DNA of 63,785 nucleotides from a virus (Duplodnaviria > Caudoviricetes). Location: positions 1-63,785 of the IMG/VR virus record IMGVR_UViG_3300032157_000216; one strand, 5' to 3'. Position 1 is the first letter of the stretch, and every line of letters starts with the position of its first letter. The notes beneath the pieces were generated by a model, which saw nothing but the letters and a program-made list of their open reading frames with translations, ran no database searches and was not told where the DNA came from. This document shows, piece after piece, positions 1,939 through 25,313 of the stretch. A program made the translations under genes and the position numbers.

Positions 1939-2465
1939 TGTTTTGTTCCATTAAAAATTACAGGCTCATCTGTAGGTGTAAATGCATCTTTACCAAATAT
2001 TTTAGGAAGATGATATTTCGTTGTTATATCAAATAACTGTTTATTATATTCATTGAATGATAAAATTACAGATGAACATCCGAGAATTTTGGCTCTCTCT
2101 ATTTGATATTTAGTATTATATTGATGTATATATGATTTACTTCCGAGACCTGTATGTACTGTTCTAGTTTTAGAAAACATTCTGAATCCAGCCTGATAAA
2201 TCATACAATCATGATAATCTCTTATCATACCACCAGAACCGGCCCAGATTTTATCATCAACATATATTAATTGATAAGAATCTAATTTGTCATTTAATAT
2301 AGAATTTATCAAACTCCAATCATGTTTTCTTCCATAATTTTCAGGTAAATATTCTAAATCTACCTCAAATGTATCACATAATTCTTTCTCTAGAATAGAT
2401 AAAAAAGAATCTTTATTTTCCTTTGACAGTGTAAGTAATCTAACATCATTCATTAAATTTATCAA
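1911..2465 (-). CDS. Hypothetical protein (weak GNAT-like impression)
   Basis: 184 aa ORF packed in the operon; no diagnostic motif. Confidence 0.5.
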   Translation of the reverse strand: MINLMNDVRLLTLSKENKDSFLSILEKELCDTFEVDLEYLPENYGRKHDWSLINSILNDKLDSYQLIYVDDKIWAGSGGMIRDYHDCMIYQAGFRMFSKTRTVHTGLGSKSYIHQYNTKYQIERAKILGCSSVILSFNEYNKQLFDITTKYHLPKIFGKDAFTPTDEPVIFNGTKQWLLTMLLK

Positions 2466-4107
2466 CTAATATTCCAAGACTTAAAATCTGAGTTAATAGA
2501 ATTCGATTTGGTGGCAAGTCTGTTAAAATTCGATTTATATATTCGATTAATTTTCCTTTCTTAAAAATTCCTAAATTATGTAATTTGTCATTCTCAAATA
2601 TATATTGATGAAATAAATAAATCCATTCAGAATTTATTTTTGGAGATGTAAATGGCCTTTTAGGAATATCTGCCAATATTGGATTCCATTTTCTAACGAT
2701 ATTCCTTAAAACACTTTTAGATGGATAATTAGCAGATTCTAAGTTCTCTATAGAATTTACATAATTGACTAAATTTTTATCTAGATAAGGATATCTATGT
2801 TCCTGACCTAGAGAAGCTGATTGTGAATCACCTAATAATTTAAGACCATATTCAGACAACCAATATTTATAATACAGATCTCGAGAAGATCCATTTGATT
2901 CTTTCAAAATACATTCTAAATCAAAAATCTCTTTAATATCATCAGATAATAGATCAAAAACCTCTTTTCCTGTTCTAGAACTATCTATTATAAATTGATA
3001 ATCATTATCAGTATGAAAATGAGAATATCCATAGAATAATTCATCAGCACCATCCCCAGTCATACAAACTTTATATCCTTGTTTAATCATTTCCCGGTTT
3101 ACTAGATACTTTCCAACGGCATGAGGATTGATAGATAAATTTTCCGAATTTAATACAACCGTTGGAAAATATGAAATTAGGTCTCTATCAGAAACATCAA
3201 CAAATGTGGTTGATATGCCATGTAAATTACAGAAATTATTTATGTCTTTTGATTCAGAGTATTCTGATCCAGGAAAATCAATACTAAAACATCCAAATTT
3301 AACATTATTCTTTTTCAAATAATAAGCAATAGATGATGAATCAATTCCACTACTAAGAACTACTGCTAAATTCTGGTATTTAGGCACTCTCTTAAGAATA
3401 GACGATTCAAGAAAGTATTCAATTCCTTCAATGTGTTCATGAATACGATCAGTTTTTATTTTGTATGCTTCTATTGAAGTATTTAAACTAGAATCAACCG
3501 TAAGTATATGACATGGTGGTATTGTATATACATTAGAAAATAAAGTTTTTCCATTAGGAAGACATTGACTAGATAGACAAAACATACATGATTTCTTATC
3601 TATCTGTAAATCAATATCAAAAGCAGATAATGCTTTTATCGTTGACGAAATTAGAAATTGTTTTTCGCTAATATAATATCGTAACGGTTTAGTCCCAAAA
3701 GAATCTGTAGCGCAAATCCAAGTTTTAGATATTGTATTATATACGACGAAACAAAATTCACCATTTATATATTTTATAAAATCTTTTCCTCTCCAATGTA
3801 TGCCATGAATGATTACTTCTGAATCAGAATCTGTTTCAAAAGTATAGCCTCTTGTTTCAAGTAAGTATCTTAATATCTTATAATTGTAAATTTCCCCATT
3901 TACACAACCAACTAAAGATTTATCATTACTCCATAATGGTTGTGAGACTAAAGATGGAGAAGATATTGATAATAAGGTATGACCTAAAAACACATTATCT
4001 ATTTTTACATAATTTCGTGAATCAGGACCCCTATCTGAAAGTAAATTAAGAGCGGAAATTATCTTATTATCAGAAACACTTTTATTTCCACAAATAATTC
4101 CGCACAT
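2446..4107 (-). CDS. asnB: Asparagine synthetase B-like glutamine amidotransferase
   Basis: N-terminal MCGI (Ntn Cys), RGPD, NGEIYN, SDSEV, PP-loop SSGIDSS, TGDGADELFYGY and RYPYLD. Confidence 0.9.
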   Translation of the reverse strand: MCGIICGNKSVSDNKIISALNLLSDRGPDSRNYVKIDNVFLGHTLLSISSPSLVSQPLWSNDKSLVGCVNGEIYNYKILRYLLETRGYTFETDSDSEVIIHGIHWRGKDFIKYINGEFCFVVYNTISKTWICATDSFGTKPLRYYISEKQFLISSTIKALSAFDIDLQIDKKSCMFCLSSQCLPNGKTLFSNVYTIPPCHILTVDSSLNTSIEAYKIKTDRIHEHIEGIEYFLESSILKRVPKYQNLAVVLSSGIDSSSIAYYLKKNNVKFGCFSIDFPGSEYSESKDINNFCNLHGISTTFVDVSDRDLISYFPTVVLNSENLSINPHAVGKYLVNREMIKQGYKVCMTGDGADELFYGYSHFHTDNDYQFIIDSSRTGKEVFDLLSDDIKEIFDLECILKESNGSSRDLYYKYWLSEYGLKLLGDSQSASLGQEHRYPYLDKNLVNYVNSIENLESANYPSKSVLRNIVRKWNPILADIPKRPFTSPKINSEWIYLFHQYIFENDKLHNLGIFKKGKLIEYINRILTDLPPNRILLTQILSLGILVDKFNE

Positions 4108-6801: not shown

Positions 6802-6867
6802 CAGAATGCAGTTTTTTACGTTTGATTTTCAGTCAAATTTTATGTAATTTTTGCAGGATGCATTCTT
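6802..6867 (-). ncRNA. CAGCAA-scaffold RNA copy E1, carrying a Phe(GAA) anticodon stem-loop
   Basis: AAG-AATGCATC-CTGCAA...TTTGA-CTGAAAA-TCAAA...TGCATTCTG. Confidence 0.75.
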
Positions 6868-8385: not shown

Positions 8386-8449
8386 CAGAGTGCGCTTTCT
8401 TTTCAAGATAATGGTTTGAAATTTTTAATTGTTTGCGGTAAACACTCTT
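8386..8449 (-). ncRNA. CAGCAA-scaffold RNA copy E3, carrying a degenerate hairpin
   Basis: AAG-AGTGTTTA-CCGCAA...TTTCAA-ACCATTATC-TTGAAA...GCACTCTG. Confidence 0.7.
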
Positions 8450-12532: not shown

Positions 12533-12602
12533 TACGCATTGCAGGATTCGAACCTGCGTCCCCACCGGGTCTGGTGGCGTTCTACCTTTGAACTAAATCC
12601 GT
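12533..12602 (-). ncRNA. tRNA-like RNA with a 6-nt loop in place of the anticodon loop
   Basis: Canonical D and T arms; CCACC-AGACCC-GGTGG; no CCA. Confidence 0.6.
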
Positions 12603-12995: not shown

Positions 12996-13559
12996 TCAAC
13001 CTGGCTTGTTTGCTGTTCTTTTTCGTTCTCTTATCCAAAGTGCAGCAATCCATTTTTCGCCTTTGGTAACAAGTCTGCCATGATGTGCAGTTGAACTTTT
13101 TATCTTCAAATCTGGATTGCTATAATCAAAGAAGAGAAATTTACCTTCTTCGGGTTCAACCCAAACATTGAGCAATGGAAAATCTGTAGCACCACCTTCA
13201 AAATTATCATTAAGATAAATTATTATTGTTGCTATTCTATTACCATTTTCCTCACACGCCTGCAGAGCTTCGAAACTTTTGAAAAAATCAGAATGAAGTT
13301 TAAATTCATCACCCATTTTATATCGGATAACTTCTAAGTCTTCAAATCGATCTTTATCTATTTCTAATATAGAACTGATTCTATCACAAATTTTTGATAC
13401 AAGTAAATTATTACTATCAGTTCTAGCACTCCATGATCCTCTCATTCCTTTCGGAATAGCGCCATATCCAGAGTAACTTAATAACGTGGAGTCTCTTAGC
13501 TTGTCTTTATATTCTTCAATTAAAGACTGACATTCTTCATGTGTAAGAAAATTCATCAT
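12996..13559 (-). CDS. Prolyl 4-hydroxylase-like 2OG-Fe(II) oxygenase
   Basis: FLTHEEC, RY..GDEFKLHSD, RIATIIIYLND.FEGGATDFP and H.GRLVTKGEKW. Confidence 0.9.
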   Translation of the reverse strand: MMNFLTHEECQSLIEEYKDKLRDSTLLSYSGYGAIPKGMRGSWSARTDSNNLLVSKICDRISSILEIDKDRFEDLEVIRYKMGDEFKLHSDFFKSFEALQACEENGNRIATIIIYLNDNFEGGATDFPLLNVWVEPEEGKFLFFDYSNPDLKIKSSTAHHGRLVTKGEKWIAALWIRERKRTANKPG

Positions 13560-14366: not shown

Positions 14367-15746
14367 TTACACTTCCTTATTGATGAAATATTTATTTCCT
14401 ATTTCTTCTCTATTTATCTTTGTAAATCCCCAACGCCGTTCCATACAATGCCAATTGCTACAAGGGTCATATAATGAGGTGTGATTTTTACCACATTTTG
14501 CGGTATACTCAAAAATATCTTCTAATCCCAATTGTATGATAGCATCAACAATATGATATTTCTTTAGAAGTAAGAATGGTAATCTCACATAATCAGGAAA
14601 ATTTGTTGGCCTTACTGGCCCACCATCGAGCCCACTCCCTGGACCGGGTATTTCATTAGAACCCGAAAAGAGAAACATATTATTAGAATATTTTCGTTTT
14701 TCATCAATATTAGTGAAATAATTATGTAACCCGGGTGGAACCTGATCCTGAGGAATTCTATCTACGGGTCCAGGATGAGTTGTAAGTTTTAAAATGTTAC
14801 CATTAACCTTATTTCTAATAATATCAATCATTAGTTCAGCATTGGCTTTATCATCGGTAATTGCTTGACTGTTGAGACTACCGTTATCGCTTGTAATCAT
14901 TATCGGTTTTATGAAATAAGGTACAACCTGTTGGCTATTAAGCCCTCCTAGAATATACAATAATAAAGAGCTATCCATTCCACCGGTAAATCCGACGATT
15001 ATAGTATTATCCGGTTCACGATTCACTGGCAATTCTACTTTCATTATCCGTCTATCGTTTTCCGGACCAACTTCTAGTTCAAACGACGTATCAACAAGTG
15101 GTGGATAAATTATAGGATTTATGTCAACATATTTACTATGATCTAAAAACAATGTAGTTCTTGAATATTCTCTAATCCAAATTGTAGCAAGCCATTTCTC
15201 ACCTTTAGTGACAAGTTTTCCACAATGTTCTGATGCCCGTTTTACGAACGGGTCTGGATCACTGTAATCAAAGTATAGAATACTTCCCTTTTTAGGAGAA
15301 ACCCATAATCTTAACCAAGGAAAATCTGTATCTCCACCTTCAAAATCATCATTGAGATACATCAAAACTGTTGCAATTCTATAACCACCTTTTTCAATAT
15401 TTTTAGCACCATTAGGCCCAGTAATATAATCGGTGTGTCTCTTAAATTCTTCACCAGGAAGATATCTTATAACAGTAATTTTATCAAATCTCGATTTATC
15501 AATTCCTATAATTTTAGAAATTTTATCTCTTATCTGTATACCTATTAAACTTTCATCATCTACAAACGATGCTGAACAATTTCTATGTTTAATAGAAACT
15601 TCAGGATCACCAGAATCTCCATAAATCTTACCGGGTACTAGGTTTGCTCTTGCTTCTTCTATTAATGAATTACATTCCTCATCAGTAAGAGCATTCTCCA
15701 TTAATTTAACTGGTGGTGTTATTCTTAATTCTTGAAATTCTGGCAT
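14367..15746 (-). CDS. Fusion of a prolyl 4-hydroxylase-like oxygenase and a QueC-like PP-loop ATPase domain
   Basis: N half HTD...HCG...KGEKW; C half FTGGMDSS and a Cys-rich tail KC-x10-CSNWHCMERR. Confidence 0.75.
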   Translation of the reverse strand: MPEFQELRITPPVKLMENALTDEECNSLIEEARANLVPGKIYGDSGDPEVSIKHRNCSASFVDDESLIGIQIRDKISKIIGIDKSRFDKITVIRYLPGEEFKRHTDYITGPNGAKNIEKGGYRIATVLMYLNDDFEGGDTDFPWLRLWVSPKKGSILYFDYSDPDPFVKRASEHCGKLVTKGEKWLATIWIREYSRTTLFLDHSKYVDINPIIYPPLVDTSFELEVGPENDRRIMKVELPVNREPDNTIIVGFTGGMDSSLLLYILGGLNSQQVVPYFIKPIMITSDNGSLNSQAITDDKANAELMIDIIRNKVNGNILKLTTHPGPVDRIPQDQVPPGLHNYFTNIDEKRKYSNNMFLFSGSNEIPGPGSGLDGGPVRPTNFPDYVRLPFLLLKKYHIVDAIIQLGLEDIFEYTAKCGKNHTSLYDPCSNWHCMERRWGFTKINREEIGNKYFINKEV

Positions 15747-18052: not shown

Positions 18053-18156
18053 CAGGTTGTTGTTGCTAACCCGGGACTCGAACCCACGCAACACCCCCAG
18101 CGGGACAGGCACGAAAAGTTTTGGCTCGTATATTTTTGTTTGCTGTAATCAACCTT
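18053..18156 (-). ncRNA. CAGCAA-scaffold RNA copy E4, carrying hairpins and a T-loop module
   Basis: AAG-GTTGATTA-CAGCAA...TGTTGC-GT-GGG-TTCGAGT-CCC...GCAACA-A-CAACCTG. Confidence 0.7.
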
Positions 18157-18167
18157 CAGAAACTAAA

Positions 18168-18287
18168 CAGGATACCTTTTTAGATAGGCTATCAACCTAT
18201 TGCCAAACCATTTGGCGTACAACGCAGAAGCGTAGTGTTGGAATTGAACCAACTAGTCTTATTAAGACTTTTGCTGCATGTATCCTT
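18168..18287 (-). ncRNA. CAGCAA-scaffold RNA copy E5, carrying a circularly permuted tRNA-Ile(GAT)
   Basis: Inside the AGGATAC/GTATCCT stem the order is T arm, acceptor 3' strand, TTCT, acceptor 5' strand, D arm, anticodon arm. Confidence 0.75.
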
Positions 18288-18292
18288 CAAAC

Positions 18293-19497: not shown

Positions 19498-19508
19498 ATT
19501 GAATTATC

Positions 19509-19574
19509 TGATGTATATAGGAATCGAACCTAGACTTGGCTTTAGTTCAGCTTTGCCGTCCACGGCATACATCA
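19509..19574 (-). ncRNA. Miniature tRNA-like RNA or tRNA pseudogene
   Basis: TGATGTAT/ATACATCA terminal stem and TAGG-TTCGATT-CCTA T arm; degenerate anticodon arm; no CCA. Confidence 0.5.
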
Positions 19575-19578
19575 TATT

Positions 19579-19652
19579 TGGTAGGTCTTGAAGGAGTCAA
19601 ACCTTCGTAGGCCGCCTATCAAGCAGCTATTCTATCATTGAATTAAAGACCC
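19579..19652 (-). tRNA. tRNA-Ile(GAT)
   Basis: GCTGC-TTGATAG-GCGGC; CCA. Confidence 0.9.
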
Positions 19653-19743
19653 AAATTGGTGCCGAGCCAGGACTTAATGCATTACAGAAAGGGCCTGGCC
19701 TACCGGCGATCTGCTGAATGCAGTAACCTTTCTTGCTAAATTT

Positions 19744-19945: not shown

Positions 19946-20974
19946 TTAGACCGGAGCACCGATCCAAATCATCAGGCCCATGCCCTTGGTAAGCTTACGG
20001 TTAACCGACGTCGATTGGACGTAGATTTCATAGTTACCATGCTGGCCCGGAGCAACCTTAACATCACCGGAATGCGGCAAGCCGAGAAGATCACGCGCAC
20101 CATATCCGCTGTAAACAGCACCAGTCGTCTTATCACGAACGGCAATCTGTTTATAGCCTTGAACAGTTTCGGTCTTCTTCAGTTCATAAAATGCACAACC
20201 CTTAACAAAGGTAACGCCTTGATCATTCACGAAGTCACGAATCTGGCAACCGTCCCACTGAGCATCCACTTCATACACATCCACCTGCTTAGAAATATCA
20301 ACCAGAGTGGCTTTTACTTCCTTCAGGCTGACATTACTCATGTCAGTATAGAATTTGTCAGTGCTCCTTACACCAGTAGCACGAGCTGCATAGAAGCCCT
20401 TGAACGCACTCTTGGTAGCAGCGGTAGAAACTTGAACACCACGTTCAGATTGTTCCCATTCCTGAATGTTACCATCAGGAATACCATATTGGGTAAGCGA
20501 ACGCTTATAACCCTTCGGTACACGGAACACAAACGTCCAACGATCAGTTGCTTGAAGTTCCTTGATCATCTTTGCAACGGATGAACCCGAATGCTTACAG
20601 CTTGCATTTTCCTCACCATCAGTGGTGGTAAACACAACAAAAGAAACATCAGGATCATCGGCATCCGGAACAGCTTTCAATTGCTCAACCAAGTCACCCA
20701 CCGCATCAAACAACGGAGTTCCGTGGCCCCTGGCGCTATAACTCGATTCGGTAATCGGCTTCAACGCAGTGACAGACGAATTCTTGATAACGGTACGTAC
20801 CTGATTGGTATTACCATATCCAAGTTCAACAACCGATACAATAGTATCGATGCCATGATTGGCTGCTTCCTCTTTGATCGACACAATGTTATCATTGTAG
20901 TCACGTGCGGCGTGACGTGCAATAGTAGCCATCGAGCCGGAGTGATCTCGTGCAAAACCAATGTAGTTCTTCAT
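19946..20974 (-). CDS. von Willebrand factor A (vWA) domain protein
   Basis: MIDAS motif DHSGSM, GTPLFDAV and TDGEEN; GAAAGG RBS. Confidence 0.85.
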   Translation of the reverse strand: MKNYIGFARDHSGSMATIARHAARDYNDNIVSIKEEAANHGIDTIVSVVELGYGNTNQVRTVIKNSSVTALKPITESSYSARGHGTPLFDAVGDLVEQLKAVPDADDPDVSFVVFTTTDGEENASCKHSGSSVAKMIKELQATDRWTFVFRVPKGYKRSLTQYGIPDGNIQEWEQSERGVQVSTAATKSAFKGFYAARATGVRSTDKFYTDMSNVSLKEVKATLVDISKQVDVYEVDAQWDGCQIRDFVNDQGVTFVKGCAFYELKKTETVQGYKQIAVRDKTTGAVYSGYGARDLLGLPHSGDVKVAPGQHGNYEIYVQSTSVNRKLTKGMGLMIWIGAPV

Positions 20975-21006: not shown

Positions 21007-21035
21007 ACTATACAATAAGTACATCACTTTGTCAA
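21007..21035 (-). promoter_or_regulatory. Sigma70-type promoter of the vWA gene
   Basis: TTGACA-17 nt-TATAGT. Confidence 0.75.
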
Positions 21036-21547
21036 CTGGTGTCGCTAATTCGTTTTAATGCTTTTCGCCCCTTGCCTTTATTCTTAGCACCAAAAGTTGG
21101 TGTTTGTGAATGGCAATTTGGACACAATAATCTAACGTTAGATGGCAAATTATTATTTGAAAATCCATTGATATGATCTAAATGAAGACTCAATGGTTCT
21201 CCCGACCAATCTGATATTCCACATTTCATACATTTGTATCCAAATCTTTCAATTAAGACTTGTTTTATTGTCGAATTTTCTACTAATTCGCCTTTATCAA
21301 ATTTTTCTGATCTTCGTTTTTTACAAGTATCTATTCTTTGTTCTACATTCTTAGACACCAATAATGATTTTTCTGTCCTAATCTTATTAGTCTTTCTATT
21401 AGACTCTAATAGTCTAGAGGATTGTTTAGCCGAAATAGATTTCTTTAGTTTATCTTTATCTGTCCATGTTCTACTATTAGCACATTTTCTACAACAATAA
21501 ACCCCAGGCTTATTATGTAAATTTGGACATTTAGGACATTGTTTCAT
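21032..21547 (-). CDS. HNH homing endonuclease
   Basis: CMKCG, LHLDHING..NN...N.RLLCPNCH. Confidence 0.9.
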   Translation of the reverse strand: MKQCPKCPNLHNKPGVYCCRKCANSRTWTDKDKLKKSISAKQSSRLLESNRKTNKIRTEKSLLVSKNVEQRIDTCKKRRSEKFDKGELVENSTIKQVLIERFGYKCMKCGISDWSGEPLSLHLDHINGFSNNNLPSNVRLLCPNCHSQTPTFGAKNKGKGRKALKRISDTS

Positions 21548-21601: not shown

Positions 21602-21722
21602 TGGTGTCGCTGGACGGAGTCGAACGCGTCATCACTTCCTTATGATGGAATGATTTTGATTGCTGTATGTATCCTTGTCAGGATCACTTTCTTTAAGTGT
21701 GTTACCCTTACACTACAGCGAC
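21602..21722 (-). tRNA. tRNA(CAT) interrupted by a 46-nt permuted CAGCAA-scaffold copy (E6)
   Basis: Removing 21651-21696 gives a 75-nt cloverleaf with CTTCC-ATCATAA-GGAAG and CCA. Confidence 0.75.
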
Positions 21723-21824
21723 ATTATTGGAGCACCTATCTAATATAGTTAATAGAGACTAGGGAAGGAGCATTGATTGAGAGGGCCTATCTAATATAGA
21801 TTAGAGATCGATAGGCTCAAATTT

Positions 21825-23560: not shown

Positions 23561-23617
23561 CAGAGTACACATTTGGCTTCATTTACAGTGAATTTTTGGA
23601 TTGCTGAAGGTACTCTT
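23561..23617 (-). ncRNA. CAGCAA-scaffold RNA copy E7, carrying a Tyr(GTA) anticodon stem-loop
   Basis: AAG-AGTACCTT-CAGCAA...TTCA-CTGTAAA-TGAA...GTACTCTG. Confidence 0.8.
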
Positions 23618-23954: not shown

Positions 23955-24029
23955 TGGTGGAGGCCGTCGGTATCGAACCGAACTAGACAGCAATCTTGCA
24001 AGGATCACCCGCAGCCCTCTGCTGCCCCC
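23955..24029 (-). tRNA. tRNA-Ala(TGC), compact non-canonical fold
   Basis: G3:U70, A73, no acceptor-D linker, GTGATC-CTTGCAA-GATTGC 6-bp stem; CCA. Confidence 0.75.
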
Positions 24030-24040
24030 ATAAATAAAAT

Positions 24041-24177: not shown

Positions 24178-24262
24178 TGGTGGACCCTGATAGATTTGAA
24201 CTACCGAAACCAGAAGGTGCCATCTTCACTGATGGTGGGTTTGCCCGCTCCCCTAAAGGCCC
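24178..24262 (-). ncRNA. tRNA-like RNA with an Ala-type acceptor and a 6-nt loop
   Basis: GGGCCTT/AGGGTCC (G3:U70), A73, CCA; CCATC-AGTGAA-GATGG. Confidence 0.65.
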
Positions 24263-24520: not shown

Positions 24521-25075
24521 CTATTCGTTTACGGAATAGAAAATATTTAAGGAAGTCGTAACATCAATCTTAAACCATTCGCCAACTCTTTTAAGAGTAG
24601 ACAGATTCATTTTATCTATGATAAAAGATTCCATCTTTCTACGATCAGTTACCCATCGAAGTCCTACAATAGCATATCGTTTTTCAGGATCATATTGATT
24701 ATAGACGCTAAGTCTCTTTTCATAATCAAAAGCCATTCCAACTTTGACCCAACCTGGAAATGATTCATTCTCAATCAAATAAACAAAACCTTCTTTAATC
24801 AAAGTCTGTTCACCGTGAACTCGAATTTCGTCTTTATATTTTTGACGATTATCCAGGAGTTTTCTATATAATATTTCTTCGTTAGTAACCATTGGTTTAG
24901 TTACTGGTCTTACTTTCTCCTTAAAATTTACAATTCTCTTCTTAGATTCGATTATCTTAATCTTATCTTTCTTTTTCTTCTTAAGTTGCCCAGTTTCGAT
25001 CAAAAATCTATTATGGATCTTTGTTTTATAGTAAAGATCAGCATAATTACCAATGCTCGAAATTTTCTTACTCAT
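24521..25075 (-). CDS. T5orf172-type (GIY-YIG superfamily) protein
   Basis: GFVYLIEN..FPGWVKVG.A....KRL..YN and GEWF; start moved to MSKK, downstream of the terminator. Confidence 0.75.
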   Translation of the reverse strand: MSKKISSIGNYADLYYKTKIHNRFLIETGQLKKKKKDKIKIIESKKRIVNFKEKVRPVTKPMVTNEEILYRKLLDNRQKYKDEIRVHGEQTLIKEGFVYLIENESFPGWVKVGMAFDYEKRLSVYNQYDPEKRYAIVGLRWVTDRRKMESFIIDKMNLSTLKRVGEWFKIDVTTSLNIFYSVNE

Positions 25076-25088
25076 ATATTTAATATCA

Positions 25089-25120
25089 ACAAAAAAGCCG
25101 CTTAGTTTCCTATGCGGCTT
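25089..25120 (-). terminator. Attenuator terminator
   Basis: AAGCCGC...GCGGCTT followed by TTTTGTT; its 5' arm is shared with the antiterminator. Confidence 0.85.
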
Positions 25121-25151
25121 CCTTTTATAAGTGTTCTGGATACTTTTATCT

Positions 25152-25313
25152 TTAGTTTCCAGACTCCTTGTAGAAGGAAGCCATCGTAATTGGATCTTGT
25201 TCATTACTAGGTGTGAACCCAAACGACCAATAACCTTTGCCGGCGCAGAGGCGCTTGGAGGCTAAGGCCACCATATGCATCTCATTAGCAGTTTTCAGTT
25301 GTCGTTCAATCAT
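25152..25313 (-). CDS. Putative 53 aa attenuator leader peptide containing all 20 amino acids
   Basis: MIERQLKTANEMHMVALASKRLCAGKGYWSFGFTPSNEQDPITMASFYKESGN; its 3' codons form one arm of an antiterminator. Confidence 0.7.
   Translation of the reverse strand: MIERQLKTANEMHMVALASKRLCAGKGYWSFGFTPSNEQDPITMASFYKESGN

Follow-up and report, generated by a model that had tools for sequence, protein, structure and literature searches.

The minus strand of the viral contig held in IMG/VR as IMGVR_UViG_3300032157_000216, all 63,785 nucleotides (nt) of which we analysed and refer to as the window, carries a transfer RNA (tRNA)-shaped gene with the anticodon CAU that is broken by an insert of 46 nt, and the locus raises the question of whether this insert is an intron that is removed from the transcript or a domain that the RNA keeps. 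The original prediction had posed the same fork, between a new small tRNA intron and a tRNA with a built-in handle. Covariation shows that the tRNA frame and the insert are both under selection, and we favour retention over a new small intron; of the two branches, the handle is better supported by related modules that replace an anticodon loop or a whole anticodon arm, and the intron branch is still alive.

The gene was aligned with 27 further homologues using MAFFT, giving an alignment of 28 sequences that was not fitted to structure. Elements resembling the insert were sought with two covariance models, R1 for free-standing units (built from 46 units of many contigs) and R2 for capped modules. 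The parts of the gene, in window positions, are as follows.

21602..21722, minus strand: tRNA-shaped gene with insert, 121 nt, anticodon CAU, encoded ACCA
21716..21722, minus strand: 5' strand of the acceptor stem, pairing with 21606-21612; ACCA at 21602-21605
21699..21713, minus strand: D arm GTGT-AAGGGTA-ACAC, 4 pairs, 100% paired, 3 covarying
21695..21697, minus strand: tRNA nt 27-29 (CTT), the upstream half of the split anticodon stem, pairing with 21635-21637
21649..21694, minus strand: 46-nt insert, equal to 21651-21696 of the original prediction given a TT ambiguity
21685..21694, minus strand: linker 1, purine-rich AAAGAAAGTG, 7-17 nt among homologues (by eye)
21671..21684, minus strand: P1 hairpin ATCCT-GACA-AGGAT with GNNA cap, R2 44.6 bits, E 2.6e-10
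21660..21670, minus strand: conserved single strand ACATACAGCAA with core C-N-GCA-A, at a fixed 10 nt from the cap (37/37 modules)
21649..21659, minus strand: linker 2, whose first 3 nt (TCA) with A 21660 can pair with the variable loop TGAT (21631-21634)
21635..21648, minus strand: CC, anticodon loop ATCATAA, then GGAAG; CAT at 21642-21644
21613..21630, minus strand: T arm GACG(C)G-TTCGACT-CCGTC with a bulged C, from sequence and fold

Read along the minus strand, the gene runs exactly as had been claimed, through TTAAAGAAAGTG-ATCCT-GACA-AGGAT-ACATA-CAGCAA-TCAAAATCA and then TTCC-ATCATAA-GGAAG with the T arm. The window contains the 25-mer of the insert just once, with 0 copies expected by chance, and its P1 hairpin is the sole capped module that R2 finds there (the sequence lies within the training set). 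The intact gene received no ARAGORN call and no match to the Rfam tRNA family (RF00005) at the gathering threshold or at E<=10. When every deletion spanning the hairpin was scored with ARAGORN (15,832 variants over 26 homologues), tRNA-Met(cat) was the call for five of those made from the window sequence, one of which removes RNA positions 27-72 (21651-21696) and leaves the 75-nt tRNA that had been foreseen.

The remainder of the gene has the structural marks of a tRNA, in that the cloverleaf helices (acceptor, D, split anticodon and T) covary and a U33-type 7-nt loop and 3' CCA are present, with the T stem bulged. The acceptor stem (GTCGCTG/CAGCGAC, followed by ACCA) has 7 pairs that are 95.9% paired over the 28 sequences, with two-sided changes at all 7. 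The T-stem bulge (GACG-C-G / CCGTC) is kept in the related sequences L060, L069 and L051, together with a compensatory A-U to C-G change, and a 7-nt anticodon loop of the form N-U-NNN-A-A is found by eye in 23/28 homologues. We rejected two other resemblances: a box C/D look-alike (GTGATGA with CTGA; SNORD41 17.4 bits, E 1.9), whose motifs vary in relatives and are not conserved, and a CsrA-like or Shine-Dalgarno-like AAGGA in P1, which is ruled out by the freely varying P1 sequence.

To which strand the insert belongs was decided by the pairing across it. Taking all helices together, 92.4% of alignment cells are paired, against 37-50% in slid controls, and for the split anticodon stem (nt 27-29 with 41-43) the figure is 98.8%. 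Pair 27-43 is CG in 15 sequences and AU in 13; pair 28-42 is CG in 13, UA in 12 and GC in 3; and pair 29-41 is UA in 25, with one GC, one UG and one other. The rival contiguous pairing, by the bases just before the loop-proximal CC, leaves its outer pair unpaired in 20/28. Given this covariation and the failure of the rival pairing, we place the insert between nt 29 and 30, which makes it an interruption of the 5' strand in the anticodon stem; the original prediction had identified the same 46 nt, but had set them between the D arm and the anticodon stem. By eye, the break lies at 29/30 in the window type and at 28/29 in the KVP40-1/2, F86, L064 and L065 types. Selection maintains the pairing of the anticodon stem across the insert, and closure of this stem creates a three-way junction adjoining the anticodon loop, whose 7 nt are intact. 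In addition, the final A of CAGCAA, together with the three bases that follow it, is paired with the 4-nt variable loop in 80.2% of cells, with some two-sided changes; this suggests, no more firmly than that, a pseudoknot that the pairing of linker 2 with the variable loop would form with the split stem.

The insert is one form of a conserved, covarying module made of P1 flanked by A-AG...CU-G and then a (U)ACAGCAA single strand at a fixed distance. In capped modules the cap is always G-N-N-A, the 10 nt from the cap to the C-N-GCA core are kept in 37/37, and P1 covaries. Free-standing units run in the order A-AG, 5' strand of P1, C-N-GCAA at a fixed distance, a variable part, 3' strand of P1 and CU-G, usually followed by TTTT. 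In the alignment of 46 such units AAG, C-N-GCAA and CTG are invariant, including the C, G, C, A and A of the core, and in 74 distinct units pairing is 100% at each of the 7 P1 pairs, with many kinds of base pair represented, in an alignment fitted to the model. The claim of seven other copies in the window held up: a regular expression with a fixed 19-nt spacing matches exactly 7 more, all on the minus strand, and R1 recovers the same seven (E 2.4e-13 to 0.072; three lie outside its training set) together with a weak variant at 19685-19734.

23561..23617, minus strand: free-standing copy, hairpin loop CUGUAAA, R1 57.9 bits
23709..23763, minus strand: free-standing copy, hairpin loop CUUUUAA, R1 57.5 bits
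18168..18287, minus strand: free-standing copy, large cargo with a T-arm-like hairpin, R1 16.4 bits, E 0.072
18053..18156, minus strand: free-standing copy, large cargo (minihelix and T arm), R1 25.3 bits, outside the training set
8386..8449, minus strand: free-standing copy, R1 47.5 bits, RF01414 23.1 bits
6879..6961, minus strand: free-standing copy, T-arm-like cargo, R1 25.6 bits, outside the training set
6802..6867, minus strand: free-standing copy, hairpin loop CUGAAAA, R1 46.3 bits, RF01414 25.3 bits (E 0.0069 in 201 nt)

Four of these copies start 5-8 nt after the CCA end of a tRNA, and two pairs stand in tandem. The inside-out relation between the insert and these copies, also foreseen, is borne out by ATCCT-G..A-AGGAT-ACAT(A)CAGCAA, which agrees at 17/18 bases with the copy starting at 18289; the 5' strand of the 18168..18287 copy is 17/18 identical to the insert. 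Many units have as their variable part a hairpin whose 7-nt loop resembles an anticodon loop, most commonly CUUUUAA or CUGUAAA, and a simple regular expression over 59 small units gave UUU 12 times and GUA 5 times as anticodon-like triplets, a few of them spurious. Most free-standing units enclose only this short hairpin, which is implausible as an exon, and the suggestion that the seven copies would circularise their cargo is not supported. By eye, larger units contain a T arm, an acceptor stem whose strands are joined by a short loop, and a D arm. Five of them (L004, L005, L006, L008 and L009; 113-144 nt) hold a T arm with the acceptor 3' strand, a 5-14-nt loop, the acceptor 5' strand and a D arm, that of L004 also an anticodon arm, and in all five the module joins the outer ends. 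Such large units look like circularly permuted tRNA-like genes, a layout seen by eye in L004, L005, L006 and L008/L009 and not in the interrupted gene itself.

R1 finds 79 units in 426 kilobases of fetched tRNA-array sequence. A 17-nt word of the insert has 38 loci in viral contigs, 33 of them in tRNA arrays (30 free-standing, 3 inside tRNA-like genes) and the remaining 5 looking like chance matches in coding sequence; in 596 gigabases of prokaryote genomes the same word occurs at 45 places, at none of which the 3' strand of P1 follows. Rfam holds no family for the module. The module is an abundant phage RNA family, so far restricted to phages.

All 28 aligned homologues, which come from viral contigs, metagenomes and an isolated cyanophage, carry the insert, and a capped-module word retrieved 26 metagenome loci. 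The sources of the family are soil and freshwater metagenomes and cultured T4-like phages (KVP40, nt-1, Aeh1 and BUCT-ZZ01). In the isolated Synechococcus phage BUCT-ZZ01 a relaxed BLAST search brought up a tandem pair of copies, both unannotated, and BLAST from these copies led to KVP40, phi-pp2, nt-1, F86, V07 and Aeh1. ARAGORN with intron search called the second gene of the BUCT-ZZ01 pair only, with an arbitrary intron. The public labels of members in cultured phages are none, tRNA-Pseudo-4/-5, tRNA-OTHER, tRNA-Phe/Asn and tRNA-Val; tRNA-Pseudo-4 and -5 of KVP40 and two unannotated neighbours belong to the interrupted-tRNA family. The R2 counts of capped modules were 5 for the whole genome of KVP40, 2 for BUCT-ZZ01, 2 for Aeh1 and 0 for Lak-A1, and R1 counted 1 free-standing unit in KVP40, 3 in BUCT-ZZ01, 2 in Aeh1 and 0 in both Lak-A1 and T4. 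The stretch of nt-1 that was analysed has 3 module matches.

BUCT-ZZ01 (L072, ON615601) 2992-3107 and 3122-3238: tandem interrupted genes, with a free-standing unit at 1247-1309, all unannotated
L045 ~3427-3532, minus strand, and L052 ~2125-2230, plus strand: tRNA-like RNA with a capped module as its anticodon arm
L045 ~3385-3440, minus strand: capped module in a 6-base-pair microhelix ending GCCA, adjoining the arm-replaced RNA

By reading of the sequences, 30 of the 37 curated capped modules lie in split anticodon stems. In three (KVP40, nt-1 and V07) the module stands in place of the anticodon loop on a CCGGC/GCCGG stem that is intact, with no canonical loop recoverable; two replace the whole anticodon arm (L045 and L052); one sits in the microhelix; and one stands wholly outside any tRNA. 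A D-arm word for the arm-replacing variant gave 4 matches, with the module in L045 only (L052 was known beforehand).

These contexts bear directly on the fate of the insert. We put at about an even chance the reading that the RNA permanently keeps the insert as an extra domain in a tRNA-shaped host, the module being found widely across the tRNA clusters of phages. Acceptor stem, CCA, D arm and T arm, the body of the tRNA, would then serve as a frame for maturation and stability within a polycistronic tRNA transcript (RNase P, 3' trimming), and the module would be the working part, a docking site for a trans-acting partner that is most likely a protein. Within the ribosomal P site, 16S ribosomal RNA contacts base pairs 29-41 and 30-40. 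The RNA would accumulate at about 121 nt. It would not be an ordinary decoder, because an insert in the backbone at 29/30 should clash with that site. Our working guess at its function is that an anticodon hairpin is displayed next to the module, the commonest loops of free-standing units being CUUUUAA and CUGUAAA; more speculatively, the RNA may be a decoy or platform for enzymes directed at anticodon loops.

Several lines of evidence argue for retention. In 6/37 capped contexts the module cannot be an intron because its excision leaves no anticodon loop, and the free-standing units have no exons to join since most enclose only a short hairpin. The tRNA bodies of the 28 homologues are often irregular, with an extra base in the 5' strand of the T stem in 10, an extra base in the acceptor 3' strand in 4 and 8-nt loops in 3 (by eye), and in 8/26 homologues no deletion at all produced an ARAGORN tRNA call. 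Retention would also be favoured by analogy with the closest look-alikes, the Dictyostelium Class I RNAs, which accumulate in their entirety. Insert-free alleles in relatives, proposed earlier as a check, did not turn up: an insert-agnostic 5'-exon word found six homologues in viral contigs, 6/6 with the insert, and a 3'-exon word found two, 2/2 with the insert, in searches that are poorly suited to the purpose and did not include the joined exon-exon word. The splicing endonuclease family PF01974 had 0 matches in 4 complete module-bearing phage genomes (0/4) and 0 in the window, and the window, estimated at 19% of its genome, encodes no RNA ligase, RtcB or splicing endonuclease.

The alternative that survives best, which we consider possible but on the unlikely side, is a genuine intron of a small, structured class that is new; a phage or host endonuclease, or the module itself, would cut on both sides, and the 75-nt tRNA(CAU) would result. 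The uninterrupted 3' strand of the anticodon stem would keep the two exon ends adjacent, ready to be sealed by a phage RNA ligase (after healing by Pnk if needed), and permuted units would mature through the same cuts. Most of the observations that favour an intron also weigh against retention, which we infer from comparison of sequences. Deletion of the insert gives tRNA-Met(cat) here and an ARAGORN tRNA with the expected anticodon in 18/26 homologues. The split anticodon stem covaries at 27-43 and 28-42, in contrast to the contiguous alternative, and is under selection even though the precursor has a more stable fold: for the unspliced window RNA an energy model gives -28.9 kcal/mol for the contiguous extended hairpin against -20.8 to -21.4 for the split-stem cloverleaf (minimum free energy -30.9), so that the stem backed by covariation is about 8 kcal/mol the worse. 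Selection on the split stem is most easily explained if the pairing matters after the insert has been removed. A constant loop signature with varied anticodons (positions 34-36 read CAU, UAC, CAC, GAU, UGU, GUC, UCC, UGG, GCU and GUU) is apparently the behaviour of real, working tRNA families. By eye, GUC members have discriminator G, the GUU member G, and the UGG member C1-G72 with A73, which we take to agree with the identity rules for these anticodons.

Further points for an intron concern how the module is deployed. Its insertion point differs by lineage (28/29 versus 29/30), and it also joins the ends of permuted tRNA-like genes, an arrangement that seems to mirror the intron-containing and permuted tRNA genes of archaea and red algae, which share one splicing motif. 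An Rnl2-family RNA ligase is encoded in 4/4 of the complete module-bearing genomes; T4, which is R1-negative, likewise has one. The available part of one report describes unexplained 'enigmatic' introns in Lak megaphage tRNAs (10.1101/356790), but Lak-A1 has 0 matches to R1 or R2, so the reported Lak introns are something else and we rejected them as the same element. Against an intron, no cleavage enzyme was seen in the PF01974 searches above and no ribozyme family in Rfam matched; the linkers to the presumed splice sites vary by eye (7-17 nt for linker 1, 7-12 nt for linker 2), so that no simple ruler would serve; the module is plainly no intron in the 6/37 capped contexts or in hairpin-only free-standing units; and no insert-free allele was seen with either exon word.

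A related and similarly tentative proposal is that the module belongs to a new class of small structured elements (~45-55 nt) acting as intron and processing cassette of phage tRNA genes, used at several anticodon-arm sites and at the joints of permuted genes and cleaved by an endonuclease or by itself. Cutting would leave a nick in the anticodon stem, held on the continuous template strand, as a substrate for a nick-sealing Rnl2-type ligase working with Pnk.

A two-state RNA appears improbable to us. Here the insert would stay, and exchange between the split-stem cloverleaf and a contiguous hairpin, involving linker 2 and the variable loop, would gate the anticodon loop or CAGCAA. Both of these mutually exclusive pairings are available in the window sequence, and the pairing of the post-CAGCA bases with the variable loop is kept at the level given above; however, the outer pairs of the contiguous form are unpaired in 20/28, so a switch is not a feature of the family, and the duplicated ATCA that enables it is specific to close relatives of the window sequence. 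That this is a dead tRNA(CAU) gene, disrupted by a repeat spreading through the tRNA cluster and yielding at most a junk transcript, we regard as very improbable: tRNA finders reject the intact gene, its T stem is bulged, relatives (KVP40 included) are labelled tRNA-Pseudo or tRNA-OTHER in public records and homing-endonuclease open reading frames (ORFs) crowd the array as a sign of much DNA traffic, but insert and gene are conserved across a soil jumbo phage, a freshwater cyanophage, vibriophages and an Aeromonas phage, and base changes compensate one another in P1 as well as in the acceptor, D, T and split anticodon stems, a pattern that decay would not preserve.

Closer comparison with known systems separates the module from established introns and ribozymes. 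Archaeal and eukaryal tRNA introns and permuted genes are alike in using one cassette at anticodon-arm sites and at permuted-gene junctions. Their bulge-helix-bulge consists of two 3-nt bulges separated by a 4-base-pair helix at the exon-intron borders; here, as had been noted earlier, inspection by eye around 21694/21649 shows none, PF01974 is lacking in the 4 genomes, and the phage module, unlike that system, has conserved primary sequence and also occurs without exons. Group I introns of bacterial tRNA genes likewise interrupt the anticodon arm of a bacterial-type tRNA gene, but have a conserved P1-P9 catalytic core of roughly 200 nt or more, whereas the insert, rightly judged too short for a group I or II intron, has 46 nt and neither a P1-P9 core nor an Rfam intron match (searched in the window and a 701-nt neighbourhood). 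Hepatitis delta virus (HDV)-like theta ribozymes, which occur beside phage tRNAs, were rejected together with hammerhead, twister, pistol and hatchet ribozymes, with no Rfam match at the gathering threshold or at E<=10. The HDV-type fold is a nested double pseudoknot in which the 3' strand of P1 comes directly after P3, and the strand order of the units (P1 5', motif, hairpin, P1 3') does not fit this topology. T4 species 1 and 2 RNAs (rnaC, rnaD) were also set aside, as they lack the module and R1 has 0 matches in T4.

The only recurrent Rfam match of the free-standing units, always below threshold, is RF01414. Twelve phage units score 23.1-38.1 bits and do not reach the gathering score of 41.5, the best being L045:3318-3372 at 38.1; ten units in nine other loci score 24.1-38.1 bits, and all 10 coincide with units found independently by regular expression. 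According to the available text of one account, Class I RNAs start with AAG, have a short end-joining stem conserved in structure only and a ~11-nt motif beside its 5' strand, end in CUGU, measure ~60 nt (42-65 nt), accumulate as whole units and are unique to dictyostelids, with none reported outside Dictyostelia (PMC7919456). The free-standing phage units resemble these Dictyostelium RNAs in their AAG start, a 6-7-base-pair end-joining stem with structure-only conservation, a conserved ...UUACAGCAA strand that directly follows the 5' strand of the stem, a variable A/U-rich middle, a C-U-G(U) end and a length of ~55-70 nt, the phage flanks being mostly G-TTTT. They differ in that the Dictyostelium genes are driven by a eukaryotic polymerase with a DUSE promoter ~60 nt upstream, whereas the phage units lie in tRNA arrays and often hold an anticodon-like hairpin, and the capped tRNA-embedded form has no Dictyostelium counterpart. 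Membership of the phage units among Class I RNAs is not established, but the likeness seems too detailed to dismiss.

Foreign RNA domains on tRNA frames have precedents: YrlA/Y RNA, the tRNA-like domain of transfer-messenger RNA (tmRNA) and the engineered 'tRNA scaffold' all carry a functional domain in this way. The phage RNAs share with them a foreign domain in or instead of the anticodon arm, a design that the L045/L052 and KVP40-3 variants follow exactly, whereas the interrupted gene keeps an anticodon hairpin beside its insert. YrlA itself (RF02553) gave four matches of 20.9-28.2 bits against a cut-off of 69, none at a module and two at or beside ordinary tRNA calls. The pseudo-tRNAs of KVP40 belong to the same family but are labelled and not analysed in the portions of the literature covered, and the available text on T4-like phages merely counts 'pseudo' tRNAs, as for Aeh1 and 44RR in Table 4 (PMC1524935). 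Our literature search found no description of the module, of its tRNA-embedded form or of a Class I RNA likeness in phages, and a search with the motif word returned only noise.

The window is an entire viral contig with a G+C content of 38% and a CheckV completeness of 19%; given this completeness and its portal, T4-type long-tail-fibre and other structural genes, it represents a fragment of a very large tailed phage. The tRNA array occupies about 6.6-24.3 kilobases on the minus strand, with 29 genes by ARAGORN and a few more by Rfam, interspersed with homing-endonuclease and other ORFs. The neighbourhood of the interrupted gene had zero matches among phage records at E<=1e-5 (megablast, blastn), the relaxed search alone leading to BUCT-ZZ01, and no protein-anchored relatives were found via window 24521-25222.

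Other features of the array were noted in passing. The spacer between tRNA-Lys and the interrupted gene (window 21735-21815, minus strand) holds CTATATTAGATAGG twice, 38 nt apart, and this pair could be promoter or processing signals. Odd tRNA-like elements lie at window 23955-24030, 19500-19580, 24178-24262 and 12533-12602 (all minus strand), including one with a 3-base-pair anticodon stem and loop CTTGCAA and another with an acceptor stem and T arm and no normal D or anticodon arm; two of the four are ARAGORN calls with undetermined anticodons. A direct repeat of 240 nt with 71% identity (window 13015-13254 and 15157-15396) lies in or beside two ORFs that match 2-oxoglutarate-Fe(II) oxygenases. 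Module-bearing tRNA arrays also hold phage-encoded tmRNA (L021 1885-2252, 168 bits) and a wcaG RNA (L003 3628-3721, 44.9 bits, above threshold).

In seven related contigs (L027, L045, L046/L017/L053, L047, L049 and L062) a gene for a protein of 240-342 amino acids lies within about 70 nt downstream of the RNA gene, and in five of the seven a TTGACA-N17-TAnnnT promoter stands between the two by eye. In the window an HNH endonuclease ORF separates the RNA gene from the gene for the 342-amino-acid protein (21032-21547 and 19946-20974, both minus strand). This protein (phrog_26613) has a DHSGSM motif and, in its N-terminal half, a predicted von Willebrand A fold (model mean predicted local distance difference test score 64.2). 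We rejected it as the partner of the module: it has no Pfam or PDB sequence match, and its link to the RNA is synteny in one lineage alone.

Conserved interrupted tRNA-shaped genes have thus sat in cultured phages (KVP40, nt-1 and Aeh1) under a pseudo-tRNA label, a plain tRNA label or no label at all, and the architecture of their module matches that of the Class I RNAs, which have been published as exclusive to social amoebae. Should the insert be retained, these phages would use tRNA frames to display a small docking RNA beside an anticodon hairpin, which would bear on how phage tRNA clusters counter host defences directed at tRNA. If instead it is excised, it would represent a tRNA intron of a kind new to the bacterial world, and if the cassette proposal is true, T4-like RNA repair enzymes would gain a housekeeping role and a phage RNA element would be tied to the Class I RNAs of Dictyostelium.

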